From Escherichia phage ECML-4: a stretch of DNA of 64,000 nt. Under the pieces are notes generated by a model that worked only from the letters and a program-made list of their open reading frames with translations, was not told the DNA's origin and searched no databases. Each line of letters opens with the position of its first letter. Within the stretch, counting starts at the first letter, position 1. The position numbers and the translations under genes were made by a program. This document shows, one piece after another, positions 2,213-54,197 of this stretch. The stretch is from the sequence record JX128257; one strand, written 5' to 3'.

Positions 2213-5209
2213 TCAACCTTTCTTGCCCATCATGGACAACAGATTAACTCGACGTTTGTGAGACCAACCAACCACGTCTAGAATAGACTGAATCGGCTCT
2301 ATGAAGGTCTTTTCAAACGTGGTGTGGTAATCTACCCACTTATCCAGCCCCAACTCCGGAGGGAGGAAGTCAGGGAAGGCTATGCGGTCGTTCCCCACAG
2401 GGTTCCCAGGTTTCAGGTTAATGATTTTAACCTTATCGCCAGATTCTATCGGCGGGAGACCGAGGTCTTCATGCTTGTCTATCAGCTTGTTGTACATAAT
2501 ACAAGCCTTGGCAGCAAAGTGTGTGCCACTGATATAATTTCCGTTGCCGTCTAACCACTTCTCAATATCACTAACGCCAGAGGCTTGAGCAATATCATCC
2601 ACGGTTAATTCCATATATTCCTTCTTATAACCCGCGATCAATTCCTGAACTTCAGCCTCCGTCCCCAGCAGAACTTTCTCATAGCATTTAACCAGACGCT
2701 CACGACACCATTCCGGCGTTGTAGATTTACGCGCTTCCAGACCTTTGAATTTTATCTTTGGCTTCTCATACTTGATGCCTTCGCTATCGTATACTGCCAT
2801 GCAATACATCTTCTTGGCTCGCCATACAGCAGACGATGCGATGACCTCACGTTCCCAGACCATGCGCTGCTCAAACCCGTTCATGGTATTACACAACAAC
2901 TGCGCCCATTCACTGGTTTTTGGCTGGTAATTCTCTTTGATCCATTGGTCAATGTTATCAACGAGTTTGTGATGATCCTTTTCTTCAGGCCACAATTGCT
3001 TGACCAGACGTTCAATGCAAATGTAGTTGGAGTCAGTATCACCCGCGATAACAAAATCCTGACCAGTAGTGCCGCAAAGTTTGTTCAGATAATCATCGGT
3101 GTGGCGTTTGTTCCATTTGTTGATCAGCTGGCCGGAAGTGGTGATTGCTTCAGCGATGTTGATGTTGAAGTATTCTTTAAACCAGACGTTGGAGATTGCG
3201 CCATAACCTGCGTTCATCAAGATCTTCAGACCTTGTTGTAACGTGTCTTGAGCAACCCCCAGATCTTCCCACTTGTGCATGACTTCAGTCAGGTGATCAA
3301 GATCGATGTGCTTGTGTTCTTCATACCATTCAGGATCGTAGAAACGAGACTTCATGGCGGATTCAAGGTGGAAATCACCTTTAGACATTTCCTTACACCA
3401 ACCAGCCCATTGCTCATACTTCAGGCCAGTTGCTTTCTCTCCTTTACGGTCAGCGTATATGCCTCGCATAATTTCGGAAAGGAAGGACATCTTCTCATTA
3501 CTGAAGAACTGAACGTTCGGGGTAAACGAAACGTTATATCGGCGTAGTGTTTCAAAATGGAATTCGCCCAGCGCGACCAATTCATCAACAACTTGTATGC
3601 GTTCATCAATAGCACGCTGCAACTTGTCGTGAAGATTTTTGAGATGACGACGTTTATTCATCGGCGTTGTCATATCATTCATCGCTTTGGTCAATTCCTC
3701 ACACATGGCCTCAATAATATCACGGCGGGTGTGCTTATCAGAAACGATAGTCTCTGGACCAAGGTTGTATTGCTGTATGATGTGGGGATACAGGGAGTTT
3801 AAGTCCTCAGAGAAGACCCAGAAATATATCCCTGGTGCAACCTCCATGACATATGCGCCTTCAAAATCTGTTGGCCCATCATAGACGCGCTGGATTTTCG
3901 GGACAATCCCCTTCTCATAAAGACGATAATAACACATCGCCAGCCACGGCGCTACAGTGCCGAGACCGTCTTCATAGTTGGATTTAGTGCGATAAGCCAA
4001 TACAAACATCAGCTGTATCAAACGCAGTTTTTGTTCTAAGCGCCACACCAGCTTGACGTCTTTGATACCATATCGCGTATGCTTGCAATAATCATTGAAA
4101 TAAAGGTCATACAATGATTTGCTTTCACTATAATCCAACTTCTTCTCACCGAGTTCACAATAAGCGATCCAGTCCAGTGAGTATTTTTCACGGGTGGTGT
4201 AAGTGTGTTTCTTGTACACTTGCATGTAGTCCATCATTGGACAACCCACAAACTGATAAGACGTGACGTCGCCTTTACGGTCTTTGATGAAACGTTTCTT
4301 CAGTTTACCCCAAGGACTGAGACGTTGGGCTTCAGATTCACCAAGAACCTGCGTAATTCGTTCAACCAAATAGGGGCTATCGAACGTTTCAATGTTCCAC
4401 CCAGTCCAACCGTCAAATTGACGCTGCGACCAGTAATCCAAGAAGGCGCGAAGCAGATCTTGTTCCGTCGTATATTCTTTATATTCAACCTCAAGACCGC
4501 CGACTTCTTCATCATTGGGGTCATATTTGAATTTATGGCGATCCTTGGAACACGGCATGCCCCAGACATAGAATTTATTGGTATTCATATCTTGGAGCTG
4601 TATCAGCGTAATAGGGAACGCCGCATTCATGTTCTGTGTGATTTTACCGTTACTGTCAATTATAGGGAATTGGTCAGTCACGTTGTTGGAAATAAAGGAA
4701 CCAGGGAAATGCTCCCGAACGAAATCATGGTTGGCCAGTACTTGCTTATGGAAACGACGAACCCGCGCCTCGCTGCCTTTAAACGTGTGAGATTCAATCG
4801 TTGCGTGTGGGAATGGACCTTTAGTCATTTCTCCGTCACGCCAACCAGCCGAGAACACTTCGATATCCACGTTGGCGATGTGGATATTTGAATAATCAGG
4901 TGTGATCATCCCAGGAAAACTATGGGCGATGAATTGATATGCATAATCCGTTTGTCCATACACCGCAGCCCCTTCGACCTCCTTGTACTCCTCAAGATAG
5001 TTGTCAGCGTCGCGCATTGATGCAAACTTTTTAGACACCAACGGTTCGTTGAGGAGGCCAATCTTTTCAACTTTGGAATAATCAGCTGTGGGTAAATACA
5101 AGGTGGGTTCGAATTTCTTACGCAACATGCGGCGATTGCCGTTGTCGTCTGCGATACGAATCAGAAGGTCGTTACCCTGTCGGGCAACGTTCGTATAGAA
5201 AACAGTCAT
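2213..5209 (-). CDS. DNA polymerase, family B (T4 gp43-like)
   Basis: Motif A DLNSLYPHII and motif C VIAGDTDS present; overall collinear with remembered T4 gp43. Start chosen at ATG 5209 (MTVFYTN) preceded by GGAGACAAACA; track ORF extends to 5311. Confidence 0.93.
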   Translation of the reverse strand: MTVFYTNVARQGNDLLIRIADDNGNRRMLRKKFEPTLYLPTADYSKVEKIGLLNEPLVSKKFASMRDADNYLEEYKEVEGAAVYGQTDYAYQFIAHSFPGMITPDYSNIHIANVDIEVFSAGWRDGEMTKGPFPHATIESHTFKGSEARVRRFHKQVLANHDFVREHFPGSFISNNVTDQFPIIDSNGKITQNMNAAFPITLIQLQDMNTNKFYVWGMPCSKDRHKFKYDPNDEEVGGLEVEYKEYTTEQDLLRAFLDYWSQRQFDGWTGWNIETFDSPYLVERITQVLGESEAQRLSPWGKLKKRFIKDRKGDVTSYQFVGCPMMDYMQVYKKHTYTTREKYSLDWIAYCELGEKKLDYSESKSLYDLYFNDYCKHTRYGIKDVKLVWRLEQKLRLIQLMFVLAYRTKSNYEDGLGTVAPWLAMCYYRLYEKGIVPKIQRVYDGPTDFEGAYVMEVAPGIYFWVFSEDLNSLYPHIIQQYNLGPETIVSDKHTRRDIIEAMCEELTKAMNDMTTPMNKRRHLKNLHDKLQRAIDERIQVVDELVALGEFHFETLRRYNVSFTPNVQFFSNEKMSFLSEIMRGIYADRKGEKATGLKYEQWAGWCKEMSKGDFHLESAMKSRFYDPEWYEEHKHIDLDHLTEVMHKWEDLGVAQDTLQQGLKILMNAGYGAISNVWFKEYFNINIAEAITTSGQLINKWNKRHTDDYLNKLCGTTGQDFVIAGDTDSNYICIERLVKQLWPEEKDHHKLVDNIDQWIKENYQPKTSEWAQLLCNTMNGFEQRMVWEREVIASSAVWRAKKMYCMAVYDSEGIKYEKPKIKFKGLEARKSTTPEWCRERLVKCYEKVLLGTEAEVQELIAGYKKEYMELTVDDIAQASGVSDIEKWLDGNGNYISGTHFAAKACIMYNKLIDKHEDLGLPPIESGDKVKIINLKPGNPVGNDRIAFPDFLPPELGLDKWVDYHTTFEKTFIEPIQSILDVVGWSHKRRVNLLSMMGKKG

Positions 5210-5270
5210 TGTTTGTCTCCGGTTAACCGTGCCGTCAGCACGTCCCCGTAATTTAACCGAGGAACGTTCA

Positions 5271-5861
5271 ATGACCAAGGAGTTTAAAATGGCAATCCCC
5301 TTTGTGAGCATGATTCCAGGGGCGCTAAAGCAACTCTGGAATCTTGGGACTGATTTGGTGCAATATAAGCGGGAAATTGTTCAGGCTAAACACGATGTTA
5401 AACTGGAGGCAATAAAGTCTTCTTCAGAATGGGAACTTTCTAAGATTACCGAAGTCGGCGGATCTTGGAAAGATGAATTCTGGACAATCGTTTTGGCTGT
5501 TCCCGCTATCCTTGTTATGATCGCTCCGGTTGTGGAACTTCTAATGTTCCCCACCGAGTATCATAAAGGGGATTTCATCAAAGCAGTAATTGATGGTATG
5601 CAAGCCCTTGAAACAGCGCCTGATTGGTATACTGCTTCGCTATTGACAGCAATTAGTGCATCATTCGGTATCAAGGGGTACAACCATTACAAAAGCAATA
5701 GCCGGAAGGCGCAAGCTGTGGATGCTCTCAAACAGTTTGGGGTCAAAGTGGTTAACAAAGATCCCACTGTTGTTACTCAGTCGGGTTCTCCCGATCTTGA
5801 GTCTGCTCCCCCAGCTGGGTCTACTGCGACCTCTGGTGCGTGGCCTGATCTGAAGAAATAA
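5271..5861 (+). CDS. putative membrane protein
   Basis: Start ATG 5271 after GAGGAACG RBS; hydrophobic segment FWTIVLAVPAILVMIAPVVELLMF; divergent from the polymerase gene. Confidence 0.5.
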   Translation: MTKEFKMAIPFVSMIPGALKQLWNLGTDLVQYKREIVQAKHDVKLEAIKSSSEWELSKITEVGGSWKDEFWTIVLAVPAILVMIAPVVELLMFPTEYHKGDFIKAVIDGMQALETAPDWYTASLLTAISASFGIKGYNHYKSNSRKAQAVDALKQFGVKVVNKDPTVVTQSGSPDLESAPPAGSTATSGAWPDLKK

Positions 5862-5865
5862 GTTC

Positions 5866-5891
5866 AAGGGGAGGAAACTCCCCTTCTTTTG
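5866..5891 (+). terminator. rho-independent terminator-like hairpin
   Basis: AAGGGGAG-GAAA-CTCCCCTT followed by CTTTTGG, directly after the stop of 5271..5861. Confidence 0.55.
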
Positions 5892-5901
5892 GTGTTAGGG
5901 A

Positions 5902-6114
5902 ATGAAAGTGGTAAACAAGAGATTGCTCGTCACCCAAGGCGGGGCGACGATAGTACGTGGACGGATATATGAACAAACCAAGCTGGGTGATCATAAGACT
6001 CGTCTGACGGTTAAAGCCCCCGACGGCGGTTGGCCAACAAAGGTGATTGTCCCAGACGGCCTCATAGAACGAGGGACGGCGACGTATAAGGGTGCAGAGT
6101 TCAAAATTTATTAA
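5902..6114 (+). CDS. hypothetical protein (70 aa)
   Basis: ORF from track; weak RBS spacing, so existence and start are uncertain. Confidence 0.3.
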   Translation: MKVVNKRLLVTQGGATIVRGRIYEQTKLGDHKTRLTVKAPDGGWPTKVIVPDGLIERGTATYKGAEFKIY

Positions 6115-6131
6115 AATATTTATTGAATAAA

Positions 6132-6160
6132 GTTTACTTCTTCAATAACTGGCGTATACT
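6132..6160 (+). promoter_or_regulatory. T4-early-like sigma70 promoter (GTTTAC-N17-TATACT)
   Basis: GTTTAC at 6132-6137, 17 nt spacer, TATACT at 6155-6160; preceded by palindromic TTATTGAATAA box; about 50 nt upstream of CDS 6210. Confidence 0.5.
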
Positions 6161-6209
6161 TCTAATTGTAGTACGAACAAACAACAATCTGAAGAGAAGG
6201 AAATACATC

Positions 6210-6767
6210 ATGGCAATCGAAATTATCGCTCAATCAAAATCAGGCAAGACTGTAATGTACGGCACTGAAGAAGGCCGCTGTATCATCAACTACGGCACTA
6301 TCACTGGCGAGTCTCCAGAGAAAGGTGGTCGCTATCTGGTTGAGTACGGTTCACGCCTGCTAATGGTAAGCAAAGTCGATGGTCGTGAAATCATGATTCC
6401 TCGTAAAGAATACTTTGACTCACGCTCTGCCGCGATGACTTTCTTCCTCTTCCAGAAACGCCACGAACTCTTCGTTGAAGCGAAAGACGCAGGTCTGGAC
6501 GACGCGACGGCTGAGCTGATTGCCGAAGGTAAAATGACTCTCGAAGCTGCTCTCGGAGACATGGATTGCGAAGCCGAAGCACATTATATTGAATATTCCG
6601 CATATCAGAACGAATGTGAAGATGATCCGGAAGACGACGGATTCGACCCTGACCTCCACGGCGGCGAAGACGATAACACCCCTTCCTTAGAAGTTCTGAT
6701 GGCTGGCGGCCAGGCCGCTTGGGAATGGCAGAACGAGAAGAACGCCTGGCTGGATTCCCGTATCTAA
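6210..6767 (+). CDS. hypothetical protein with acidic C-terminus (185 aa)
   Basis: ATG 6210 preceded by GAAGGAAATACATC; C-terminal region rich in D/E. Confidence 0.55.
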   Translation: MAIEIIAQSKSGKTVMYGTEEGRCIINYGTITGESPEKGGRYLVEYGSRLLMVSKVDGREIMIPRKEYFDSRSAAMTFFLFQKRHELFVEAKDAGLDDATAELIAEGKMTLEAALGDMDCEAEAHYIEYSAYQNECEDDPEDDGFDPDLHGGEDDNTPSLEVLMAGGQAAWEWQNEKNAWLDSRI

Positions 6768-6773
6768 TTGACT

Positions 6774-6800
6774 GAAGCCCCTTCGGGGGCTTACTTTGAA
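6774..6800 (+). terminator. stable tetraloop hairpin (possible terminator or attenuator)
   Basis: AGCCCC-TTCG-GGGGCT directly after the stop at 6767; weak T tract (ACTTTGAA). Confidence 0.4.
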
Positions 6801-6816
6801 CTGAAGGACTATATCA

Positions 6817-6968
6817 TGATTTTAATCTTATGGTTTGTATTCACATTTCTGGCCATGGCCGACATCGGCAAGTATCACGTTCTCCCAAGCGACCTGACCG
6901 TCCTACTATACGGCATAGTTTCGTTTGTGCTGGGTTCCTTGCGCGCCCATATGAGGACTATATCATGA
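6817..6968 (+). CDS. small hydrophobic protein (50 aa)
   Basis: ATG 6817 after AAGGACTATATC; sequence MILILWFVFTFLAMADIG... predicted transmembrane. Confidence 0.4.
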
Positions 6969-7510
6969 GCACCCCAAAAACTCCTGTCCGTATCGCTGTT
7001 GAGCCTCTGCTGGTTGATGCTGAGAATGCTGCTGAGCAGTACGCGAACAAAGTCATCAAGAACATAATGGACGATCTGGCCTCCAACGACTGGGACGTCG
7101 AGAAGTGCGCTCCGTGGCCGTCTTCGGTTGGCGTCAAGTTTGGTGATCCAGATTACCAACGAATGAAATCAAAACACGCACTCTACCGTTCTTTGACCCA
7201 GGCAGTGAATCCTTCTTACACACCTGGGAAGCCGGATATTGTCAAAGCTGATCCTGAGCGCCATGCTCTGTTTGTCAAGGAAGCACGTCGAAACGCCGCG
7301 ATGCAGTATGAGTCTTTCATTTGTAAACTGGAAAACAAAATTGGTGGTCACAGCGCGGCTGTACTGAATGGTTCCCATGTATGGGGTTATTCAATCCTGA
7401 CCGTGACTACACCAGAGGGGATCGAGCGCTGGAAGACTCAGACGATTATCAATGTGTCCAAGCTGGGCAAACTCTTTAACCAATATCCAACGAGGAAGGT
7501 GAAGGAGTAA
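6965..7510 (+). CDS. hypothetical protein (181 aa)
   Basis: ATG 6965 after GAGGACTATATC (same initiation context as the preceding gene); ATGA overlap with upstream stop. Confidence 0.55.
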   Translation: MSTPKTPVRIAVEPLLVDAENAAEQYANKVIKNIMDDLASNDWDVEKCAPWPSSVGVKFGDPDYQRMKSKHALYRSLTQAVNPSYTPGKPDIVKADPERHALFVKEARRNAAMQYESFICKLENKIGGHSAAVLNGSHVWGYSILTVTTPEGIERWKTQTIINVSKLGKLFNQYPTRKVKE

Positions 7511-7521
7511 AATTAGAACAA

Positions 7522-7552
7522 CAAAGGGGCTTAATGCCCCTTTGTTTATTTC
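7522..7552. terminator. bidirectional rho-independent terminator between convergent genes
   Basis: CAAAGGGGC-TTAAT-GCCCCTTTG followed by TTTATTT; lies between the stops of 6965..7510 (+) and 7546..8004 (-). Confidence 0.6.
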
Positions 7553-8004
7553 CCATCCCAAAAGTCGTCTTCATCGTCTACTTCATCAAACGCAGAATCC
7601 AATTCTGCGTCAGAGTACTCTGGTAGACGACCATTCTGTTTCAGATATTCAATTTCGTCATCTTCCAATTGAAGATCCGTTGCTATAAACAGCGCTCCGG
7701 TCTCTTCATCATGTTCAATGCTATAAGACGTATATTCAGAACCCTGAACTGTAATGATGATAGATGTTGGATCTTCTGGATCCACGTGAGCTTCAAACGG
7801 GATACCGTCAATTGGGGCGTCTTCTAAGAATGTTGCAAGGGCTACGGCAGCGCGGACAACATCCGTACCCTGTACCGATGCATAAATTTCTTCTGCGCCC
7901 GTTTCCCCGCGCTCAAAGAATTCAATCGTAGTTCCGTCTTGAACCCCAGTCCAGATAGGCATATCTGCTGGTGTATCGGCTTCAAATAATTTTGAAATTG
8001 GCAT
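7546..8004 (-). CDS. highly acidic protein (152 aa)
   Basis: Very high D/E content throughout (e.g. C-terminal SAFDEVDDEDDFWDGK); last gene of a four-gene minus-strand operon. Confidence 0.6.
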   Translation of the reverse strand: MPISKLFEADTPADMPIWTGVQDGTTIEFFERGETGAEEIYASVQGTDVVRAAVALATFLEDAPIDGIPFEAHVDPEDPTSIIITVQGSEYTSYSIEHDEETGALFIATDLQLEDDEIEYLKQNGRLPEYSDAELDSAFDEVDDEDDFWDGK

Positions 8005-8039
8005 GTTCGTTTCCTCTATGGATAAACCTTATGGGATAT

Positions 8040-8489
8040 TTAGGCTTCTCTCTTCGCCAGCCCTGGTTTGAATACCACCATTTCTTCTACGTTATTGGCA
8101 CTCATAGAGGCTATGGAATCGAATCCTTTATTGATAAGTTCCTTCACATTATCGTGAATCTTACCAGGTTCTATCCCCAACTCACGCATTTTGTTTTCCC
8201 AAACAGAAACGTTATTAGAATCTATTACCAGAGTCTTCTTGGCCTTAACACGAAATGCCATGACAACAGGTTCACCAGATTGACGATAGCGAACGGCGTT
8301 TTCCGCGTAGATCTGCGCTTTTTCTGGATCCCCTGTCAGGTAAAATCCAGCACCCATCGTACCAGAGTCAGTCTGGCCAAATTTTTCAAAATCAAAGACG
8401 TCGAATTCAACATTCGACCCATGATATAAAACAATATCCGTAAAATCGGGCAATGTTGATTCACGATAGAATTCTAGGAAGGTTTTCAT
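8040..8489 (-). CDS. putative ADP-ribosyltransferase-like protein (H-Y-E type, tentative)
   Basis: Ordered motifs LYHGS ... GAGFYLTGD ... EEMVVF resemble the H-G-S / aromatic / catalytic-Glu pattern of PARP and diphtheria-toxin-like ARTs. Motif-level only. Confidence 0.3.
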   Translation of the reverse strand: MKTFLEFYRESTLPDFTDIVLYHGSNVEFDVFDFEKFGQTDSGTMGAGFYLTGDPEKAQIYAENAVRYRQSGEPVVMAFRVKAKKTLVIDSNNVSVWENKMRELGIEPGKIHDNVKELINKGFDSIASMSANNVEEMVVFKPGLAKREA

Positions 8490-8528
8490 GGATACCCCAC
8501 ACTTGCTGTATGGGGTATTTAGGAGGGA

Positions 8529-20124: not shown

Positions 20125-23100
20125 ATGGCCAACAAACCAACACAGCCTCTTTTCCCTTTGGGTTTAGAAACTTCGGAGTCTTCGAACATAAAAGGCTTCA
20201 ACAACTCCGGCACCATAGAGCATTCCCCTGGTGCAATATTGACGTTCCCTGAAGATACTGATGTTGCGGGTCTCCCATCTTCTGTGCGTTACAATCCTGA
20301 TAGTGATGAATTCGAAGGTTATTACGAAAATGGCGGGTGGTTGTCTTTGGGCGGCGGTGGAATACGCTGGGAAACGCTCCCATACGCTCCCTCCAGCAAT
20401 CTGTTAGAAGGGCGCGGCTATCTCATTAATAACTCCACTGGGACTTCTACGGTGGTTCTTCCTTCCCCTACGCGCGTTGGTGACTCGGTTACAATTTGTG
20501 ATGCCTATGGTAAATTCGCGACGTATCCATTGACCGTATCTCCAGCGGGAAATAACCTGTACGGCTCCACCGAAGATATGACGATATCCACCGATAACGT
20601 GTCGGCGACTTTCACTTGGTCTGGTGCTGAGCAGGGTTGGGTTGTTACATCTGGTGTTGGCCTCGGTCAAGGTCGTGTGTACAGTCGAGAGATTTTCACT
20701 CAAATTTTAGCATCTGATACAAATGAAGTGACTCTCAACATCCCTCCGACAATTGTGGACGTGTACACTGATGGGAAACGCCTTACAGAATCCAAATATT
20801 CTTTAAATGGAAACGTAATCACTTTCGACCCTTCTTTACCTGCTGGCACTGAATTGCAGGTAATAGAATATACTCCGATTCAGTTAGGTACTGGCGGCGG
20901 GGGTTCGGGCGCTTCTGCAATCACCTGGATTTACAATGGCGGATCCGCTATCGGCGGCGAAACCGAAATAACGCTAGACATCGTTGTAGATGATGTTCCG
21001 GCTATTGATATAAACGGGTCTCGTCAGTACAAAAATCTTGGATTCACGTTCGACCCATTGACGAGTAAAATCACTCTGACGCAAGAACTGGAACCAGAAG
21101 ATGAAGTTGTTGTGGTTATAAATGGGACACCAAACATCTATAACCAGATCGATCGTTCTTTACAGGAAGTTGCTCGCGCCTACAATTTTACAAATGCTCA
21201 AGTTATTTTGAGCAACGATTATACTTCTGTGCTGGATAATAAAGTCGTTATTTATGATACGACATCCCAACGTTCTTGGGGGATTCCATCTGGAATTCCA
21301 GCAGGTTCTACAGTGGTTTCCGTCAATGGGGATCAACTGAAATACAAAAATGGATCAACTGAAACCACTGTTACATTGGTGAGCGTACCAGGTAGTGCAG
21401 AGAAGTTGAAGAACGATCTGGCGTCGAACTCTGGCGCGGGTATGTTGAAAACTTCTAGAGGTGATACCGTAGAAGAAGAATTGACTTTTATTAATCAGAA
21501 TATGGTCGTTCAAATTTCAGATTTCGCGAGCCTTAGAACTTTAGTGCCAGCCACAGCGGGCATCCGAGTCAAATTGAAAGGTTATTATTCTGGTTCTGAA
21601 ATTGGTGGCGGAGAATTCATTTCCGTCGCTGGTGATGCTGTTGATGATGCTGGGATGATTGCTCGAGTGTCAAGCAGCTTCTATTGGAAGAGAATTATCG
21701 ACAAACATATTACTCCTGGTATGTATGGCATCAAAGGGAATCTTCCAGAAGATCCGGCAGTGAAACTGAACGCTATGTTTGCGGCTGCGGCTGCGGCTAA
21801 CGCTTATGTCTTACTGAACGATGTCGATACTCTGGTCTGTAAAAGCCCTGTCGTGATCCCAGCACATTCATTAGTGTACGGCAACAAGCGGACCATATTG
21901 AAACGTGATGCATCGTTGTCATATGCTAATGATTTCTTGACAATTATGAATGATTCATATGTCAAGGGGATCTATGTTGATGGTAGCCGTTTAGATTCTC
22001 AGACTCCGCTAGAAGCAGTTTTGGTGCGCATCGCTGGGAATGTGACTATCCATAAGAGCGAGATCCGAAACAATGCTGGCTATGGCGTTGTTGGTAACGC
22101 AGTCCCTGGCATTCGTATCACCAAGAACATTTTTTCCAACTTCGCCAAAGGTTGTGTGGCTATGTTTGGTGACGGAACGGCGACGAGTGATGATCTGCAA
22201 ATTAATGATAACAGATTCTTTAACCTGGGCGCGGGAACCATTTATGTTGGCGGTTACTCAAACTTCCTTGTCGACAAAAACGTCGGAAGAGGCACTTACG
22301 TGGGTTCTCCAGGAAACCGTCTGTATGTTGTGACCAATACCAACGGGACTATCACCCAAAGCGCTGGGCCAGATTTTGGGGCGCTGAAAACGGGTATGTT
22401 CTTTGTATTGCCTGGTGGTTCTGAACATATGATAACGGCAGTCAACAGCCTTACAAGTGTGACAGTAACCCCAGCACCTCCGTCGAATGCAACGGTTCGT
22501 GCAATTGCTGGGACAGGGGATCTTCTGGGCATCCAATCATGCTCCTACGGCACCATCAGCCGTAACAACCTGACCGATTGTGTGACTTACGGAACTGGTG
22601 GAGGCACGATGGAGGGGAGCACTCTGGGGTGCAATTATGTCACATGGGAAGACAACTTCATCCGCAACACAGGTAAGAACGGAATCAACGTCGGGCAATC
22701 AGGCGCTGGGGTCGCCACGTGTTCAATCCTGAGGAACACTCTGATACAGGTTGGTAACGGCGGTCAGGGTGTTGGCCCAGCGTATCTTCTGCCTTGGTTC
22801 GATACGGTAGGTATTGCTCTGTATCAGGGAAACCCAGGTTATATGGCGAATATGGACGTCAGTGATAACAACGTCTCTACATGGTCTGGCGATCTGAATG
22901 ACGGCGCTGCTTGGTTTGGTATGAGCGGTTGTACGGAAGCCACTGTGACTTGTACAGGCAACAAATCTTCTGGTTATTCCGACGGCTATGTTCGTGGAGA
23001 TATATTAGAAGTCACGTTGACAGGTTATGGTACAGGGGCGGCTGCGACTTCATTCGTTAGTGATGGTGAGTCTATACAGATAACTGTTCAAACAGGTACT

Positions 23101-23298
23101 TCACCAACAGCTTCTCCTTATTTTTCAGTGCGGAAGGCGATCCGCACCCGCCATCAACCGATGATAACGGCGCAGATCGTCACCACAACTGGGAACATGT
23201 CTCATTGTTGGGGTATGCAATCTAGTACAGCAGGAAATTGGATGGTGGGTCAGAATACAACTCCTTCAGGGGTCACGACGTATTACGCAAAAGGGTAA
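20125..23298 (+). CDS. tailspike protein with large N-terminal assembly region and beta-helix-like domain (1057 aa)
   Basis: N-terminal block shared with the 926-aa tailspike (DRSLQEVARAYNFTNAQVILSNDYTSVLDNKVVIYDTTSQRSWGIP vs DRSIQEIARSANVKDSEVIVSTDTISLLDGKKVVYDIAAQTSYGLP); Gly/Asn-rich repetitive C-terminal region typical of beta-helix depolymerases. Confidence 0.7.
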   Translation: MANKPTQPLFPLGLETSESSNIKGFNNSGTIEHSPGAILTFPEDTDVAGLPSSVRYNPDSDEFEGYYENGGWLSLGGGGIRWETLPYAPSSNLLEGRGYLINNSTGTSTVVLPSPTRVGDSVTICDAYGKFATYPLTVSPAGNNLYGSTEDMTISTDNVSATFTWSGAEQGWVVTSGVGLGQGRVYSREIFTQILASDTNEVTLNIPPTIVDVYTDGKRLTESKYSLNGNVITFDPSLPAGTELQVIEYTPIQLGTGGGGSGASAITWIYNGGSAIGGETEITLDIVVDDVPAIDINGSRQYKNLGFTFDPLTSKITLTQELEPEDEVVVVINGTPNIYNQIDRSLQEVARAYNFTNAQVILSNDYTSVLDNKVVIYDTTSQRSWGIPSGIPAGSTVVSVNGDQLKYKNGSTETTVTLVSVPGSAEKLKNDLASNSGAGMLKTSRGDTVEEELTFINQNMVVQISDFASLRTLVPATAGIRVKLKGYYSGSEIGGGEFISVAGDAVDDAGMIARVSSSFYWKRIIDKHITPGMYGIKGNLPEDPAVKLNAMFAAAAAANAYVLLNDVDTLVCKSPVVIPAHSLVYGNKRTILKRDASLSYANDFLTIMNDSYVKGIYVDGSRLDSQTPLEAVLVRIAGNVTIHKSEIRNNAGYGVVGNAVPGIRITKNIFSNFAKGCVAMFGDGTATSDDLQINDNRFFNLGAGTIYVGGYSNFLVDKNVGRGTYVGSPGNRLYVVTNTNGTITQSAGPDFGALKTGMFFVLPGGSEHMITAVNSLTSVTVTPAPPSNATVRAIAGTGDLLGIQSCSYGTISRNNLTDCVTYGTGGGTMEGSTLGCNYVTWEDNFIRNTGKNGINVGQSGAGVATCSILRNTLIQVGNGGQGVGPAYLLPWFDTVGIALYQGNPGYMANMDVSDNNVSTWSGDLNDGAAWFGMSGCTEATVTCTGNKSSGYSDGYVRGDILEVTLTGYGTGAAATSFVSDGESIQITVQTGTSPTASPYFSVRKAIRTRHQPMITAQIVTTTGNMSHCWGMQSSTAGNWMVGQNTTPSGVTTYYAKG

Positions 23299-23306
23299 TA
23301 TTGAAT

Positions 23307-23345
23307 GCCTAAATACCCCATATTGGTCATCCTTTATGGGGTATT
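23307..23345 (+). promoter_or_regulatory. late-promoter-like CTAAATA box embedded in 11-bp perfect inverted repeat
   Basis: AATACCCCATA (23312-23322) and TATGGGGTATT (23335-23345), 3 nt before ATG 23349. Confidence 0.55.
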
Positions 23346-23348
23346 ATC

Positions 23349-25232
23349 ATGATTTCTCAATTCAATCAACCACGCGGCTCCACTTCCATAGAAGTTAACA
23401 AACAATCTATCGCTCGAAATTTCGGTGTCAAAGAAGACGAAGTCATTTATTTCACTGCTGGTATTGATCTCAGTGGATTTAAAGTAATTTATGATGAGTC
23501 TACCCAACGGGCTTATTCTCTCCCTTTCGGTATTGTTTCAGGGACAACTGCAATTAGTCTGGATGAAAGAGCTATCCTCACTCATTCCGCTGGCTCTGTT
23601 GACCTTGGGGAATTAGCAGTAAGCCGCGAAGAATATGTGACTTTACCTGGTTCTTTTAATTTCGGCCATACCATTAATGTGAAAAATGAACTTCTTGTTC
23701 ACGATGATAAAAAATATCGATGGGATGGCACATTACCTAAAGTTGTTCCTGTTGGATCAACTCCTACAACAACTGGGGGAATTGGGGTTGGTGCATGGTT
23801 GAGTGTTGGTGATGCATCGCTACGTGGTGAATTATTTTCAGAATACATCTTATACAAAACACCTCAGGCATTTGGTGCTATTGGTGATGGAGTTGCTGAT
23901 GACACTTTATCACTGCAAGATGCAATGGATTACTGTCAGGTTCACAACGAGAAACTTGTTATCCCATCAGGACGCTATCGAATCACCAAGCCACTGCTAT
24001 ATCGCAACCAGGGTTTTTATAACTATGAGATTGAAGGGCAGGGAGGTGCTGCTGTAATCATCATGGATTCTCTGGAAAAAACTGGAATTACTGCTCCTGA
24101 TGCCTTTGGCGATGATTTTAACGTTAACGCAGCGATGGTAGTTCTGAATGACACTAACCAGAGTAAGTATTGCCGCATTAGTGGATTGCGTTTCGAATCA
24201 CCAGTTGGTGCTGAATATGCTATTTATGTTGGTCAGGCAGAAAATACGTATATCCATGACTGCTTCTGGACTGGTTTCACCTTTGGGTGGTATGACCTTG
24301 GATCATGGGTTACACGCGTAGAACGCTGTATTGCCAGGGATATTGTAGATACTGGGTTCTTTAAGAAAAATGGCACCAGTACCTACATAGCTGAGTGTTA
24401 TGCAGACAGGATGATGCGAGGGTATTACCTCGGGGGTGGGTATTCGGCTATCATAAATTGTGCTTGCGATTTAACCACTCGCTGGGGGTTCTATCTATAT
24501 GGTGGTAGGACTGGTTCTGATTTAGCAACATTCTCTATTAAAGGTTGTGGTTCAGAGCAGTCTGGAACTGATTCTGTATTTTATGTTGACGGGCTAGTTG
24601 CGCTGTCTATAGAGGACCACAACGCAGGTAATGACCCAACTGTTCAACCAGCACCTGCTGCGTTGCTTAGCATGGCTTCGAATACATCATATTCACAAGT
24701 GGTGCTGAAAAATATTAGGACAGTAAATGTGGATACATTAATTTTGGATTCTGCTGACCATAATTATTTTGATTTAACAAATGTCACATGCCGCAGCGAG
24801 ATGTCGAAAGAATTTTATCTCGGTACGAATTCAAGAGTTTTAAAAAGGTCATATGATGGTGAAAGATTCATTACTAGCAACGACCAAGTTGGCATTGGCT
24901 TTGCGGAGTCTGATATTGTTGATGGATGGACAGATCTCACTTTGTCTGGACTAAGAAATGGACAATTTATAATTAGGAGGACTGTAAGCATACCCAGAAC
25001 TTCAGGGGATGCTGGGGCGGTAACTATCACGATGCCATTAAATATGGATACGAATTATACCGTAGCTGCCACTCTGGAGGGTGAATTTAGTCAACTGCAA
25101 TCCATTTGCCCTGTGTTCAGTGTTACAGATAAAACATCATCTAGTTTTTCTTTGTGTGCATCGTCTGCAAAGAATAATACAACATGGTCAGCTATAGATG
25201 TTGAGGTGATTATATATGGGCTGAAATCGTAA
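23349..25232 (+). CDS. tailspike protein (627 aa)
   Basis: N-terminal about 150 aa shared with the 744-aa tailspike (MISQFNQPRGSTSIEVNKQSIARNFG vs MNPQFAQPKGSTSKESNKDSIARKFG; YRWDGTLPKVVP vs YRWNGSLPKVVP). Confidence 0.7.
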   Translation: MISQFNQPRGSTSIEVNKQSIARNFGVKEDEVIYFTAGIDLSGFKVIYDESTQRAYSLPFGIVSGTTAISLDERAILTHSAGSVDLGELAVSREEYVTLPGSFNFGHTINVKNELLVHDDKKYRWDGTLPKVVPVGSTPTTTGGIGVGAWLSVGDASLRGELFSEYILYKTPQAFGAIGDGVADDTLSLQDAMDYCQVHNEKLVIPSGRYRITKPLLYRNQGFYNYEIEGQGGAAVIIMDSLEKTGITAPDAFGDDFNVNAAMVVLNDTNQSKYCRISGLRFESPVGAEYAIYVGQAENTYIHDCFWTGFTFGWYDLGSWVTRVERCIARDIVDTGFFKKNGTSTYIAECYADRMMRGYYLGGGYSAIINCACDLTTRWGFYLYGGRTGSDLATFSIKGCGSEQSGTDSVFYVDGLVALSIEDHNAGNDPTVQPAPAALLSMASNTSYSQVVLKNIRTVNVDTLILDSADHNYFDLTNVTCRSEMSKEFYLGTNSRVLKRSYDGERFITSNDQVGIGFAESDIVDGWTDLTLSGLRNGQFIIRRTVSIPRTSGDAGAVTITMPLNMDTNYTVAATLEGEFSQLQSICPVFSVTDKTSSSFSLCASSAKNNTTWSAIDVEVIIYGLKS

Positions 25233-50837: not shown

Positions 50838-50866
50838 AACCCCGCCATGTGCGGGGTTTTTCTTTA
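50838..50866 (+). terminator. strong rho-independent terminator after the capsid gene
   Basis: AAACCCCGC-CATGT-GCGGGGTTT followed by TTCTTTAT. Confidence 0.75.
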
Positions 50867-50911
50867 TAGGGATTCACTATAAGACCGCTAATAGTTTTCA
50901 ATAAGTGGGCA

Positions 50912-51148
50912 ATGAACGATCATTACCTAACTTTCACAACTGGAACGCTACTCATGGCTAAAGAAACTCTGACTAAAGAAAACTCTAACTTCGCAGAATG
51001 GCATGCAGAATTAGAGCGTGTCGCTCGTTCTCAACATGGCTCTGCCGCCGATGCTATGGCGTGGCATGAAGATTATGAGTCTGGCAAAACCCCGCGTCAG
51101 GCTTGGGAAGATGAATGGGGGTGGAATGATGCAGACTCTAATTCGTAA
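50912..51148 (+). CDS. hypothetical protein (start uncertain, 50912 or 50954)
   Basis: ORF from track; Trp/Glu-rich. Confidence 0.35.
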   Translation: MNDHYLTFTTGTLLMAKETLTKENSNFAEWHAELERVARSQHGSAADAMAWHEDYESGKTPRQAWEDEWGWNDADSNS

Positions 51149-51359
51149 GATATATCTGGATAAGAACTATTTGGAATCCAAAATCGAAGTTTTCTCGGCT
51201 CAAAAAATAATTGAAGACGGTGAAACGAGATATTATCTGAAACCTGACCTTTATCTTCCAGGAAGTAGTTTGAATCGCGATATAATTCAGTCGGACGGTA
51301 TTACTGTTCGTTGGGAAATGGCGTCACAGGAAGACAACTGTCATAGCATAACACTTTGA
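51126..51359 (+). CDS. hypothetical protein (77 aa)
   Basis: In-frame ATG 51126 within track ORF 51018..51359, overlapping the previous gene end. Confidence 0.3.
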   Translation: MMQTLIRKIYLDKNYLESKIEVFSAQKIIEDGETRYYLKPDLYLPGSSLNRDIIQSDGITVRWEMASQEDNCHSITL

Positions 51360-51374
51360 AGAGAGATCTATATT

Positions 51375-51815
51375 ATGTCAAAAGAAAAATACATATTCAT
51401 CAGCCCCGCTACGAAGGAGTTCTTCATCTCCGACGTGAAAGATCGTGTTGAGAAGTTCCGCTACATGCGCAGCTATGGTCTGGCATCCGGTGATATTGAT
51501 TATCAGTCACTGGACAATGATCGCCAAGATCTGATCGACGACGGTTGGCGTTTAGTTCCGTCCCCTCAGTACATTCATATCACGTTGTACTATATGAAGG
51601 ACAGCGGGAAGTTCTATTCCGAAGGTGAACTCGTACTCAATCGAGGAGAAGCAGAAGCCGAACCTGCCAAAACCTGGATGTTGGCGATGGATCAGATCCG
51701 TGAATTGCTGGACTCCGGTAATCTGCCTGGCCTAATCAAGGGTTCAAAATTCGACGTGTTCGTTACTGGCCAGGGTCATCCTGGTGGATACCCACATCTG
51801 TTCCGTATTAACTGA
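51375..51815 (+). CDS. hypothetical protein (146 aa)
   Basis: Complete ORF, compact spacing. Confidence 0.5.
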   Translation: MSKEKYIFISPATKEFFISDVKDRVEKFRYMRSYGLASGDIDYQSLDNDRQDLIDDGWRLVPSPQYIHITLYYMKDSGKFYSEGELVLNRGEAEAEPAKTWMLAMDQIRELLDSGNLPGLIKGSKFDVFVTGQGHPGGYPHLFRIN

Positions 51816-51823: not shown

Positions 51824-52198
51824 ATGAGCAATTTACCACTGCTTCAAGTCGGTGACGTATTCATTCTCACGGCAGAAATGACCGTTGAAACTCAGGTGCC
51901 AAAGCATTTCTTGTATTCTAATTGCAAGGGTGATTGGCAAATGGACTCTGGTTATATCACCCCTGAGGGATTCTTCGGTTACATGCAAGGACATTACGTC
52001 GTTACCAAAACAGCCCTACAAGGCGGTAGCACTGGTCATGATCCATACCCTGACGGCCATCATGTTTGGGCGCAGCATACCGAAAATGAACGCATCAGAA
52101 TCTGTTTCTATCAGACAGGTAGTTTCAGGAATATGCACCGGAATGTTCCAGTAGTCGGAAAGGCTAAGGCGCAAACATGGACTTGGGAGAAATTATGA
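51824..52198 (+). CDS. hypothetical protein (124 aa)
   Basis: Complete ORF. Confidence 0.5.
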   Translation: MSNLPLLQVGDVFILTAEMTVETQVPKHFLYSNCKGDWQMDSGYITPEGFFGYMQGHYVVTKTALQGGSTGHDPYPDGHHVWAQHTENERIRICFYQTGSFRNMHRNVPVVGKAKAQTWTWEKL

Positions 52199-52431
52199 AA
52201 ATCAAAAAGATAGGTGCAAGCCCATTGACGGGAACAATCTTCCAGGGCACTTTGAACACCAAGACCAGTATGTGGGTCGGTGAGAAGACTGATGTGACTA
52301 ACGACTGTGTAGCGGCTACGGCTGAACACATGCGTCACATCAAGAAAGACTACTGCTTCCCTACTAAAGACGGCAAGTTCCTGGTGCTGAGCGCTGAGGT
52401 TCACGACACCCTTCCTGATCGCTTCAAATAA
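52196..52431 (+). CDS. hypothetical protein (78 aa)
   Basis: ATG 52196 after GGAGAAATT; ATGA overlap with upstream stop. Confidence 0.45.
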
Positions 52432-52456
52432 ATTTAAAATTTATTCAATAAACGGG

Positions 52457-52485
52457 GTTTACTTCTTCAATAAACCCCGTATACT
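52457..52485 (+). promoter_or_regulatory. T4-early-like promoter (GTTTAC-N17-TATACT), near-identical copy of the element at 6132
   Basis: GTTTAC 52457-52462, 17-nt spacer, TATACT 52480-52485; -35 lies inside hairpin CGGGGTTT ... AAACCCCG; preceded by TTATTCAATAA. Confidence 0.5.
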
Positions 52486-52534
52486 TCATTCCATAAGCAG
52501 CACAATACTGACTCTGAAATGAAGGAAATATATC

Positions 52535-52801
52535 ATGGCACGTTCAATCCACGATTTTAAAGACTCCGATATCCTGGCTTTCATTATGGATGGTCGCATG
52601 GTAGTTGTAAATGACGGTAACGACCGCCACAACACTACTCTGGTGATGAACAACGAAGTTGTTTACAGCAACACCCGCGAAGGCATGATTAAGATGCTTC
52701 AGAATCCTCATCGCTTCGGCGACAAAATGCACAAAGATTACAAAAGCCGCTGCCCAATGCTGGCACAACGCCTGGCCTGGGCAATGCAAAACGCCGCCTG
52801 A
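52535..52801 (+). CDS. hypothetical protein (88 aa)
   Basis: ATG after GAAGGAAATATATC, same context as the gene at 6210. Confidence 0.5.
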   Translation: MARSIHDFKDSDILAFIMDGRMVVVNDGNDRHNTTLVMNNEVVYSNTREGMIKMLQNPHRFGDKMHKDYKSRCPMLAQRLAWAMQNAA

Positions 52802-52848
52802 TCAACAAGCCCCTGCAGGGGCTTCCCCAAATTTGAAGGAACTATATC

Positions 52849-53178
52849 ATGACTTTTAAAGGCTTCGTGGCATTTGACGCCACCAAAACAAACGTACTCA
52901 GCAACCCACAGCTGGAAACCATCACTGAAATGCGCCAGTGGGTGATGAAAATCACTGGCCACCAAACTCGCAAAGACCTGGAGGCCGAGTTCTATATCGA
53001 ACCTGCCGAGGTTTACTTCAACCGTCCTGTTGACGAACCGTTCATTCGTCAAGATCTTGACGATAACGATATCACGCTGTCTGTGTTCTCTGAAGCCAAG
53101 GCTGATATGATCGTAGACGGTCTGTGTGACGAGTCCTTCACATACGATGAATACTGTGATCAGTGCCAAGACCTGTGA
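52849..53178 (+). CDS. hypothetical protein (109 aa), acidic
   Basis: ATG after GAAGGAACTATATC. Confidence 0.5.
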   Translation: MTFKGFVAFDATKTNVLSNPQLETITEMRQWVMKITGHQTRKDLEAEFYIEPAEVYFNRPVDEPFIRQDLDDNDITLSVFSEAKADMIVDGLCDESFTYDEYCDQCQDL

Positions 53179-53247
53179 TTTGTTCTAAACCTTTGAACGA
53201 GGTATGTTAAGCGCATACCCTATCCCTTACAAATAGAGGACTTTATC

Positions 53248-53996: not shown

Positions 53997-54026
53997 ATAA
54001 ATTTGCCACCCATGAGGAGTTATACC

Positions 54027-54197
54027 ATGTTACAAATACTGTTGGTGCTTTGTGTCGCATTTACCATGTACTTCATGGCACGCATCGGTTTTATTACTTT
54101 AGATGACATGAAGGGTATCCCACGTGAACCCAAATTCATCTTTCTGAAGAAGTTTGCCAAAAAGTTCTCAGAAAACTTTATTTATCATCTACCATGA
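54027..54197 (+). CDS. small membrane protein (56 aa)
   Basis: ATG 54027 after GAGGAG; MLQILLVLCVAFTMYFMARIGF hydrophobic N-terminus; track ORF starts at TTG 54003. Confidence 0.4.
   Translation: MLQILLVLCVAFTMYFMARIGFITLDDMKGIPREPKFIFLKKFAKKFSENFIYHLP

Follow-up and report, generated by a model that had tools for sequence, protein, structure and literature searches.

Conserved intergenic cassettes with predicted early promoters in Vi01-like phages, and the replacement of small genes behind them

The window analyzed here is a stretch of 64,000 nucleotides from Escherichia phage ECML-4 (sequence record JX128257). It belongs to a Vi01-like Kuttervirus (Ackermannviridae) and is 99.7-99.8% identical to the Salmonella phages vB_Hercules_SET (Hercules below) and vB_SenM-AKM_ssTn. 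At 6115-6212 and 52432-52537, the window contains two intergenic cassettes, which share the blocks GTTTACTTCTTCAATAA, TATACTTC and GAAGGAAATAnATCATGGCA far above chance expectation (Table 1). The proteins encoded behind the cassettes match only families of unknown function in searches against Pfam and PHROGs; in the same search, one upstream ORF matches DUF7446.

Table 1. Features of the two cassettes and of the segments downstream of them (window coordinates)
Feature	Position	Strand	Remarks
Cassette 1, stop codon of upstream ORF	6112-6114		sequence read
Cassette 1, AT-rich block including the palindrome, up to the -35 hexamer	6105-6131	+	26 of 27 bases A or T
Cassette 1, palindrome TTATTGAATAA	6120-6130		sequence read
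Cassette 1, promoter core: GTTTAC (6132-6137), 17-nt spacer, -10 TATACT (6155-6160)	6132-6160	+	exact match
Cassette 1, spacer element TTCTTCAATAA	6138-6148		within promoter core
Cassette 1, leader and translation-initiation region	6161-6209	+	Shine-Dalgarno GAAGGA 6196-6201; ATG 6210-6212
Cassette 1, predicted transcription start	about 6167-6168		predicted from distance to -10
Cassette 1, cargo: 185-aa ORF, phrog_4823	6210-6767	+
Hairpin AGCCCCTTCGGGGGCT (6776-6791), then second translation-initiation motif GAAGGACTATATCATG (6803-6818)	6776-6818	+	promoter-less junction before next small ORF
Cassette 2, stop codon of upstream ORF	52429-52431		sequence read
Cassette 2, AT-rich block containing TTATTCAATAA (52441-52451)	52432-52456	+	sequence read
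Cassette 2, stem-loop: CGGGGTTTA (52453-52461), loop CTTCTTCAA, TAAACCCCG (52471-52479)	52452-52480	+	overlaps -35 hexamer and spacer
Cassette 2, promoter core: GTTTAC (52457-52462), spacer TTCTTCAATAAACCCCG, -10 TATACT (52480-52485)	52457-52485	+	exact match
Cassette 2, leader and translation-initiation region	52486-52534	+	GAAGGA 52521-52526; ATG 52535-52537
Cassette 2, predicted transcription start	about 52492-52493
Cassette 2, variable cargo 1: 88-aa ORF, phrog_16902	52535-52801	+
Hairpin AGCCCCTGCAGGGGCT (52808-52823) and repeated translation-initiation region GAAGGAACTATATCATG (52835-52851)	52808-52851	+
Cassette 2, variable cargo 2: 109-aa ORF	52849-53178	+

A motif search finds GTTTAC-N17-TATACT exactly at two places in the 64 kb, namely in cassettes 1 and 2, and a repeat finder couples 6117-6162 with 52442-52487 (family D3). 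The first-pass annotation had described two look-alike stretches near 6132 and 52457, each followed about 50 nt later by a gene start in the same context, and both statements hold: hexamers, spacing and GAAGGAAATAnATCATGGCA agree, and the ATG lies 49 nt past the -10 hexamer in either cassette, behind GAAGGA, with GAAGGAAATAnATCATGGCA exact at both sites (0.01 matches expected with 3 mismatches tolerated). Between -10 hexamer and ribosome-binding site, each cassette has a leader of 33 nt; the two leaders are mostly unlike, so that the identity between the cassettes comes in blocks. A recent duplication was rejected, since the leaders mostly differ and the identity is that of functional blocks.

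Once aligned to TTGACA, GTTTAC reads TTTACT (6133-6138 in cassette 1), and the spacer is then 16 nt. With this spacer, a hexamer scan gives the cassette promoters 9 of 12 matches to the sigma-70 consensus, which is no better than shuffled sequence, and the region has just as many matches as shuffling predicts. The functional case is built on repetition and conservation. Measured against the T4-type pattern of TTTAC(W) and TAYWAT at a distance of 16-18 nt, both cassettes have TTTACT, 16 nt and TATACT; the latter is one position off TAYWAT, and a third cassette of the genome, outside the window, has TATAAT. The AT-rich block, delimited by composition, abuts GTTTAC in cassette 1 and is shifted by GC inserts in cassette 2 (4 nt) and the third cassette (14 nt). 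In cassette 1 it resembles an UP element and may act as one. Conservation extends to the spacer element TTCTTCAATAA, something that a plain sigma-70 promoter would not require.

The TTTAC-type -35 hexamer in place of TTGACA, the near-consensus -10 hexamer and the AT-rich upstream sequence are all reminiscent of T4 early promoters, which have extra consensus regions beyond the standard elements (Hinton, 2010, PMC2988021). Unlike these, the cassettes have no TGn extended -10 in front of TATACT. For the related phage LIMEstone1, five putative early promoters were proposed by similarity to T4 (Adriaenssens et al., 2012, PMC3296691), and its GenBank record (HE600015) labels the orthologue of cassette 2 “putative early promoter”, with the identical hexamers GTTTAC and TATACT as minus_35 and minus_10. 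This makes the early-promoter reading plausible, and as a prediction it is already in print, although the LIMEstone1 annotation is confined to the hexamers and does not extend to a repeated unit, to conservation above that of coding sequence or to a role as gene-replacement junction. Judged from the sequence, activity of the cassette promoters early in infection is likewise plausible. The first-pass annotation had called them T4-type early promoters. They are indeed sigma-70-like sites of the T4/PST kind that lie between genes, precede a gene and bear this label in LIMEstone1, but the word “early” in the name is a prediction. The CBA120 record contains no promoter features, and according to the CBA120 paper, informatics was unable to identify early promoters (Kutter et al., 2011, PMC3184105). 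Our literature search found no transcriptome, transcript-mapping or start-site study of Ackermannviridae, and the cassette core sequence did not occur in the literature searched.

The cassettes belong to a small family. Four cassettes in the Hercules genome fit TTTACWTCTTCWAWAA-N6-TATAHT, two of them inside the window; a further match is absent from this genome even at up to 3 mismatches. The full cassettes lie at about 15.6, 62.1, 97.3 and 121.1 kb. What had at first been taken for a duplicated cassette is thus a dispersed family; the complete genome closest to the window has four members, of which three are near-identical. The looser pattern TTTAC[AT]-N15-17-TAYWHT has 8 matches in Hercules versus 2.6 expected, all on one strand and 7 of the 8 intergenic. 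Among the 2.9 million viral contigs of IMG/VR, an exact 20-base pattern, used for retrieval after an earlier 16-mer had proved unspecific (mostly chance among the matches listed), retrieved 52 loci. Contigs of about 150-160 kb carry 46 of these loci, and those that could be identified are Ackermannviridae genomes. A 106-nt query with cassette 2 matched 281 phage records, 205 of them at an identity of at least 95%, from phages of Salmonella, Escherichia, Dickeya, Klebsiella, Enterobacter, Yersinia and Shigella; in Kuttervirus records, BLAST typically placed this query at 3 sites each. Cassette 2 and the third cassette have a common leader, and the Klebsiella-type cassette 2 carries the leader of the third cassette, indicating exchange between copies. 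As a side observation, two contigs (L155 and L158) have the promoter core in another context and no match among isolated phages, so that convergence and chance are indistinguishable there.

The palindrome TTATT(G/C)AATAA had been noted before both promoters, with recurrences at about 15316 and 15955, and had been proposed as a regulator binding site. It is present in front of both promoters, but its distance to the -35 hexamer differs (1 nt in cassette 1, 5 nt in cassette 2, and 15 nt in the third cassette). Of the two recurrences, 15318-15328 is exact, 15958-15968 has one mismatch, and neither is followed by such a promoter. With three exact 11-mers (TTATTSAATAA) in the window versus 0.06 expected, and one in each of the two cassettes, the promoter might be considered to have an operator, bound by a dimeric regulator of phage or host. 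However, the dyad is lost in orthologues: Klebsiella-type contigs and Serratia phages have TTTATTGAAAAA at cassette 1, where the right half is not conserved (TTGAAAAA), and other phages have GAATTCAATAAA or ATATTCAATAAA at cassette 2. As orthologues do not keep the palindromic symmetry, and its distance to -35 varies among three near-identical cassettes, an operator role is unsupported and in our view very unlikely.

Cassette 2 also forms a stem-loop. As RNA, it folds with -15.4 kcal/mol (z = -5.3), and none of 200 shuffled sequences folds as well. The stem is invariant in relatives, hence covariation is uninformative either way. The third cassette has a strong hairpin directly upstream of its promoter, followed by a T-rich run that overlaps TTTAC. 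Hairpins of this strength could mean that the element is mainly a terminator or insulator with incidental promoter-like hexamers, an idea to which the T-rich run of the third cassette lends some weight. We consider it most improbable: cassette 1 has no significant stem-loop (z = 0.00) and no significant RNA structure in its leader (z = 0.12), the stem of cassette 2 is followed by UAUACUUC instead of a U-tract and is not flagged by a terminator scan, and both the hexamers (-35 and -10) and their spacing are conserved whether or not a copy has a hairpin. Rfam has no match around cassette 1; around cassette 2 it has only matches well short of the gathering score, which we take to be chance.

The cassettes are conserved beyond the level of their surroundings. 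In LIMEstone1, which belongs to a different subfamily, 100 of the 103 positions of cassette 2 (52432-52534) are identical (97.1%), versus 71.8% for the upstream coding sequence and 30% for the downstream flank. Cassette 1 is identical to CBA120 at 95 of 95 positions, promoter core included, with 86% and 84% in the flanking coding sequence, and 93-94% identical to Klebsiella-type contigs, with 81% in the flanks. From TTCAAAATTTATTAAAATATTTATTGAA onward, its AT-rich block is conserved in CBA120 and in relatives of Klebsiella type and from metagenomes, and its promoter core is also kept in the orthologue of Serratia phage 3M, which was found by homology and not by the motif. These values are evidence that selection acts on the entire block, from promoter through leader to ribosome-binding site, and not just on the two hexamers. 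Co-conversion by a homing endonuclease was considered as the origin of the identity at cassette 2 and was rejected, because the gene that separates the cassette from the endonuclease gene shares only 72% identity with its LIMEstone1 counterpart.

The genes behind the cassettes, by contrast, are replaced. At cassette 2, the window and Hercules are identical through GAAGGAA, then unrelated, and homologous again from about 53180. In place of the 88-aa ORF, Hercules, CBA120 and LIMEstone1 have unrelated ORFs; a phrog_6516 family protein is encoded directly behind cassette 2 in Hercules and CBA120, and the C-terminal 50 residues of the 109-aa ORF of the window match the C-terminus of this family. 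Among 262 related records, just 2 span 80% or more of window positions 52177-53400 and so keep the cargo that the window has behind cassette 2. Of 45 alignments sampled, 26 stop at query positions 350-364 (window 52526-52540), 25 of them at 52537-52540, that is, at the ATG. The match to Shigella phage MK-13 stops at about 52853, just past the second ATG. Homology also ends on the 5' side, in a contig with a different upstream flank (L143, edge within 52432-52456) and in Serratia phage 3M. Clustering of the first 90 nt after the ATG in IMG/VR yields 6 clusters behind cassette 2, with at least 4 unrelated ORFs, and 3 behind the third cassette; the 20 copies of cassette 1 give 7 sequence clusters, of which some represent variants of a single ORF. 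The pattern of a replacement junction is thus strong at cassette 2 and weaker at cassette 1. What is new here is that the cassettes are kept better than the adjoining genes, and that the cargo behind them is swapped.

Repetition around the cargo is local and limited to the ribosome-binding-site segment, which recurs at 52520 and 52834, and at 6199, 6806 and 6955. In the form TGAAGGAA, it is found at 52520-52527 and again near 52834, a direct repeat that borders the 88-aa ORF module. The pattern GGA-N1-2-TAYAYYATG occurs 9 times in the genome versus 0.3 expected. The GAAGGAAATAnATCATGGCA context of cassette 2 is lineage-specific, with GAAGGAACTAYAYCATGAC in its place in most relatives, and the GAAGGAAATAnATCATGGCA variant travels with the 88-aa ORF module, whose insertion seems to have taken place at the ribosome-binding site. 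At the junction behind the 185-aa ORF, record OR122688 annotates a terminator.

Together, our data suggest that the cassette is a self-contained expression unit and a swap point for small genes, the Ackermannviridae counterpart of the promoter-early stem-loop (PeSL) cassettes of T4-like phages; we put the probability of this model at roughly 65%. Each cassette takes up the entire space between the stop codon of one gene and the next gene's ATG, with an AT-rich UP-like block, a TTTACT-16 nt-TATACT promoter, an unstructured leader of about 42 nt and GAAGGAA-N-TA-N-A-N-CATG. Host sigma-70 RNA polymerase would use this promoter of T4 early type and, as the host enzyme needs no phage factor, the promoter would fire at DNA entry and drive the small gene behind it regardless of the late or replication operon around it. 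In cassette 2 only, the GC stem-loop over the -35 hexamer and spacer could in addition stop or stabilize transcripts that arrive from upstream. Because the family is dispersed and conserved across subfamilies, the cassette is the sole homology beside small genes that are otherwise unrelated. The cargo would then be swapped by recombination inside the cassette, for the most part at the ribosome-binding site and ATG.

It is also conceivable that the cassettes are ordinary strong promoters, each kept by selection and without any special role in gene movement, in which case the breakpoints would be passive, marking the place where an alignment ends at a conserved non-coding stretch. The cargo of cassette 1 is the same in most relatives (191 of 269 records), the copies are few and widely spaced, and the right breakpoint of the replacement at cassette 2 lies inside an ORF and outside any cassette, all of which would fit such promoters. 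They would not account well for 97-100% identity over about 100 nt, leader included, next to 72-86% in neighboring coding sequence, nor for the leader shared by cassette 2 and the third cassette or the direct repeats around the 88-aa ORF module. We regard this explanation as rather unlikely.

PeSL cassettes have been described in RB49/phi1, T4/PST and KVP40/nt-1 (Arbiol et al., 2010, PMC2839356; Comeau et al., 2014, PMC4122927). The segments 6115-6209 and 52432-52534 have the same layout, with an AT-rich block, a sigma-70-like promoter and, at the 3' end, a Shine-Dalgarno sequence and start codon; the T4/PST version of the promoter is TTTACW-N17-TAYWAT (PMC4122927). As with PeSLs, several near-identical copies are dispersed over the genome, they adjoin small ORFs of unknown function that vary between close relatives, and the replacement junctions fall inside the cassette. 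There are differences as well. PeSLs are found in T4-like phages and form dense clusters in hyperplastic regions, whereas the phage here is one of the Ackermannviridae and has three near-identical and about five diverged copies at distances of at least 35 kb, so that mini-circles between neighboring cassettes cannot be the main route of exchange. A stem-loop just upstream of the promoter is lacking in the window, since cassette 1 has none and that of cassette 2 overlaps the -35 hexamer and spacer; degraded “half” PeSLs have, however, been described too (Comeau et al., 2014, PMC4122927). The spacer sequence is conserved, and the cassettes are 97% identical across subfamilies, which is again unlike PeSLs. 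For the PeSLs of RB49, strong promoter activity, termination and mini-circles have been demonstrated experimentally (PMC2839356).

Vi01-like phages have no homologues of Alt, MotA and AsiA, and because the family lacks these T4 regulators, its control of early and middle transcription is unclear (Kutter et al., 2011, PMC3184105). Our analysis provides about eight concrete candidate promoters per genome. The exchange of small genes via conserved regulatory cassettes may extend beyond T4-like phages, and it seems to be at work in another family of large myoviruses, which includes several phages used for biocontrol and therapy. The cassettes could be used as landing pads for gene insertion and as markers for variable accessory genes.

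The half-site of the palindrome fares differently from the palindrome itself, with 27 copies of TTCAATAAA in the 157-kb genome versus 2.4 in shuffles of local composition, an excess of about 11-fold. Compatible with the swap-point model, the half-site TTCAATAA could be the functional unit, a box for a putative DNA-binding factor that lies before the -35 hexamer, in one or the other orientation, and again in the spacer of the TTTAC promoters, and that would define a second promoter class, TTCAATAA-N11-12-TATWAT. The related pattern TTCAATAA-N11-12-TAYWWT occurs 6 times versus 0.2 expected, always intergenic and in sense orientation. In addition, the spacer copy shows no variation in any cassette, not even in the orthologue found through homology; the box downstream of the DNA polymerase gene is kept in Klebsiella-type contigs while adjacent bases change; and one site (15958-15965, minus strand) lies between divergent genes, a place that needs no terminator. 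Most boxes of the second class, however, directly precede a GC hairpin whose AT-rich loop holds the TATAAT-like hexamer. The box may thus belong to a two-way terminator as its A-rich 5' flank, with an incidental hexamer. The gap between the two boxes of a cassette also varies (18, 22 and 32 nt), and no candidate factor was found. We think it unlikely that the half-site is a functional unit of this kind. Reading the divergent intergenic regions for a common promoter class gave no clear pattern. The further step, in which TTCAATAA would be the recognition box of a putative transcription factor of Vi01-like phages, twice per TTTAC cassette, and alone define a second class without -35 hexamer, is a speculation with still poorer odds. 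If it were true, TTCAATAA 11-12 nt before TATWAT, with this hexamer often inside a hairpin loop, would give a geometry like that of the MotA-dependent middle promoters of T4 without MotA or AsiA, and the copy in the spacer would be a handle to switch off or retime the early cassettes.

Virion DNA of Vi01-like phages contains hypermodified thymidines. The promoter elements of the cassettes are T-rich.

The two putative promoter regions of the window match closely in sequence and arrangement, as the first-pass annotation had claimed: on re-reading, the hexamers are exact, each promoter is preceded by a palindrome, and a repeat finder pairs the two cassettes as repeat family D3.

Features of the two stop codon-to-ATG cassettes (window coordinates)
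Feature	Cassette 1	Cassette 2
Upstream stop codon	6112-6114	52429-52431
Palindrome	TTATTGAATAA 6120-6130	TTATTCAATAA 52441-52451
GTTTAC	6132-6137	52457-52462
TATACT	6155-6160	52480-52485
GAAGGA	6196-6201	52521-52526
ATG	6210	52535

GTTTAC-N17-TATACT has exact matches only in these cassettes, and the distance from the -10 hexamer to the start of the ATG is 49 nt in both. In a gapped alignment the identity runs in blocks (the AT-rich box, GTTTACTTCTTCAATAA with 17/17, GTATACTTC with 10/10, and the ribosome-binding site). There is little similarity between the 33-nt leaders, and the spacing from palindrome to GTTTAC is 1 nt in cassette 1 and 5 nt in cassette 2. A 20-mer ribosome-binding context is exact in both, with 0.01 occurrences expected even when 3 mismatches are allowed. 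The proposed common ATG context holds in the window, but not generally: GAAGGAAATAnATCATGGCA is invariant in cassette 1 and confined to a few lineages in cassette 2, where most relatives have GAAGGAACTAYAYCATGAC.

By megablast, window positions 5000-9000 match 273 phage records, led by the Salmonella phages vB_Hercules_SET (99.8%), vB_SenM-AKM_ssTn (99.7%) and then Vi01 (99.1%), with all top relatives of the window belonging to Kuttervirus, family Ackermannviridae. The complete Hercules genome (vB_Hercules_SET, 157,338 bp) served as reference; around cassette 1, the window coordinate is approximately the Hercules coordinate minus 9453. A genome-wide motif search there upheld the repeat, but as a family rather than the duplicated pair first described. 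TTTACWTCTTCWAWAA-N6-TATAHT has four matches, all on one strand (15587, 62117, 97321 and 121104), and no fifth is found in this genome with up to 3 mismatches. The looser TTTAC[AT]-N15-17-TAYWHT has 8 matches versus 2.6 expected, all on the same strand, 7 of them intergenic, each ahead of a gene, and several preceded by a GC hairpin. A third cassette, outside the window, carries the hairpin AGGGGCAAACGCCCCT immediately 5' of CTTTAC, together with a consensus TATAAT; its leader is homologous to the cassette-2 leader. Among 2.9 million viral contigs, an exact 20-base pattern finds 52 loci, 46 of them on contigs of ~150-160 kb, of which the identified ones are Ackermannviridae genomes. Separately, a 128-kb metagenomic viral contig has the core AAAGTTTACTTCTTCAATAA-N6-TATAAT with a ribosome-binding site and ATG behind it (L155:6100-6230, L158:2180-2310); the surrounding 1.8 kb matches no isolated phage at the nucleotide level, and the resemblance may reflect convergence, distant relatedness or chance.

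The cassettes are better conserved than their surroundings. A 106-nt cassette-2 query matches 281 phage records, typically at three places per Kuttervirus record; 205 match at an identity of at least 95%, from phages of Salmonella, Escherichia, Dickeya, Klebsiella, Enterobacter, Yersinia and Shigella. Against LIMEstone1, which belongs to the subfamily Aglimvirinae and not, like the window, to Cvivirinae, cassette 2 is 97.1% identical (100/103), versus 71.8% for the upstream coding sequence and 30% downstream. Cassette 1 is 100% identical to that of CBA120 (95/95; 86% in upstream coding sequence, 84% downstream), and 93-94% identical to that of Klebsiella-type contigs (81% upstream; 88% or unrelated downstream). 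In Serratia phage 3M, whose cassette-1 orthologue was found through the homologous downstream gene and hence independently of the motif, TTTATTGAAAAACTTTACTTCTTCAATAA and TATAGT are retained, and the upstream gene and leader differ.

What follows the cassettes often varies between relatives. At cassette 2 the window and Hercules are identical through GAAGGAA, then unrelated to ~53180, and elsewhere 99.8% identical. Only 2 of 262 matching records cover at least 80% of window 52177-53400; among 45 evenly sampled rows, the match ends at 52526-52540 in 26 (25 of these at 52537-52540, that is, at the ATG), and in another 13 both flanks match and the middle is replaced. In the IMG/VR copies, the first 90 nt past the ATG group into 6 sequence clusters with at least four unrelated ORFs for cassette 2, 7 clusters for cassette 1, and 3 for the third cassette. 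Cassette 1 is steadier, with its cargo kept in 191 of 269 records. Left-hand boundaries are seen in contig L143, where a different upstream flank joins at TTTAAAAT-ATTCAATAAAC, and in phage 3M, where the join is at the AT-rich box. Behind cassette 2, the window has an 88-aa ORF with the look of an inserted module. A hairpin (52808-52823) and another copy of the ribosome-binding segment (52835-52851) come after this ORF, so that TGAAGGAA stands on both sides of it; in the ORF after that, the C-terminal 50 residues match the C-terminus of phrog_6516, the family directly 3' of cassette 2 in Hercules and CBA120. Every cargo ORF is of unknown function. For the initiation motif GGA-N1-2-TAYAYYATG, the genome has 9 occurrences versus 0.3 expected, clustered in two islands (window 6199, 6806, 6955, 52524, 52838 and 54016). 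The gene starting at ~54029 has this motif too, and just 5' of it (54000-54030) lies TATAAATA, the T4 late-promoter consensus, an octamer with only five occurrences in the whole Hercules genome.

Together, our data are best read as a portable expression cassette of a small dispersed family, acting like the promoter-early stem-loop (PeSL) cassettes of T4-like phages. It would join a T4-early-type promoter for the host polymerase to a leader and a fixed region for translation initiation, and its extreme conservation suggests that it may be a crossover point for the exchange of small accessory genes. Activity as a promoter, expression early in infection and a terminator role are all inferred. In CBA120, Kutter et al. 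2011 (PMC3184105) counted no more than eight probable sigma-70 promoters; they described early promoters as not identifiable by informatics and the family as without Alt, MotA and AsiA; the CBA120 record has no promoter features of this sort. For LIMEstone1, five putative early promoters were proposed by similarity to T4 (Adriaenssens et al. 2012, PMC3296691), and its GenBank record (HE600015) annotates the cassette-2 orthologue, by its hexamers GTTTAC and TATACT, as a "putative early promoter".

PeSLs are stop codon-to-ATG cassettes at gene-replacement junctions, composed of an AT-rich block, a stem-loop, a sigma-70-like promoter and a Shine-Dalgarno site (PMC2839356, PMC4122927). The T4/PST promoter is TTTACW-N17-TAYWAT (PMC4122927), and promoter, terminator and mini-circle activity have been demonstrated experimentally for RB49 PeSLs (PMC2839356). 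Our literature search found PeSL reports, though none on Vi01-like phages, and neither the cassette core sequence nor a transcriptome study of Ackermannviridae. The present cassettes differ from strict PeSLs in two features, the stem-loop and clustering: the stem-loop is absent in cassette 1 and overlaps the promoter rather than preceding it in cassette 2, and the copies are unclustered. On folding, the cassette-2 stem-loop (CGGGGTTTA / TAAACCCCG, 52453-52479) has -15.4 kcal/mol (z = -5.3) and that of the third cassette -13.6 kcal/mol (z = -4.7); no stem-loop is seen in cassette 1 (z = 0.00), and the leaders of both window cassettes are without structure. The cassette-2 stem lacks a U-tract and is not called by a terminator scan, and an Rfam search of both cassette regions gave no match that reaches threshold. 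The third-cassette hairpin loop reads CAAACG in some phages and the reverse complement CGTTTG in another, on the same stem (IMG/VR contigs, L030:700-766 versus L151:20-80), which looks like loop inversion inside a palindromic terminator.

The exact palindrome occurs three times versus 0.06 expected, and had been proposed as a regulator binding site. Such an operator is unlikely, because orthologues do not keep the dyad symmetry and its position varies. Its reported recurrences near 15316 and 15955 do correspond to sites, at 15318 and 15958, which are half-site boxes on the minus strand. The half-site TTCAATAAA occurs 27 times in the Hercules genome versus 2.4 expected, an approximately 11-fold excess; window sites read on the minus strand lie at 2205-2212, 12684-12691, 15318-15325 and 15958-15965, and the one at 12691 probably overlaps a start codon and is doubtful. 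Of the boxes at 15318 and 15958, one lies directly past the stop codon of ORF 15333-15902 and the other ~55 nt upstream of its start, in a divergent intergenic region. TTCAATAA-N11-12-TAYWWT occurs 6 times versus 0.2 expected, intergenic and in sense orientation, and the TATAAT-like hexamer of TTCAATAA-N11-12-TATWAT sites often sits in a GC-hairpin loop. One reading takes the box as a conserved, A-rich flank of two-way terminators; another, as a candidate factor-binding site that may define a second promoter class without a -35 element.

The two longest divergent intergenic regions (~15836-16198 and ~59100-59450) have little in common besides an exact 11-mer, CGAGTTGTGAG, at 16068-16078 and 59415-59425; with up to 1 mismatch allowed, two matches do not exceed chance (as many are reached in 30 of 100 shuffles). 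A cluster of five tRNA genes (Ile-GAT, Ser-GCT, Tyr-GTA, Asn-GTT and Met-CAT) lies on the minus strand at 11600-12863; the first carries the label undetermined in the Hercules record, which has tRNA-Ile on the opposite strand. Downstream of them, ~2.5 kb (12864-15332) contain no ORF of more than 93 aa on either strand, and the matching Hercules region (22936-24718) is largely without annotation. Downstream of the major capsid gene, the coordinate offset between window 50860-51375 and Hercules 60236-61033 shifts by ~200 nt, and where Hercules has an annotated 645-nt "endonuclease" gene, the ORFs of the window (50912-51148 and 51018-51359) are all shorter, which suggests insertion, deletion or decay of a putative homing-endonuclease gene.
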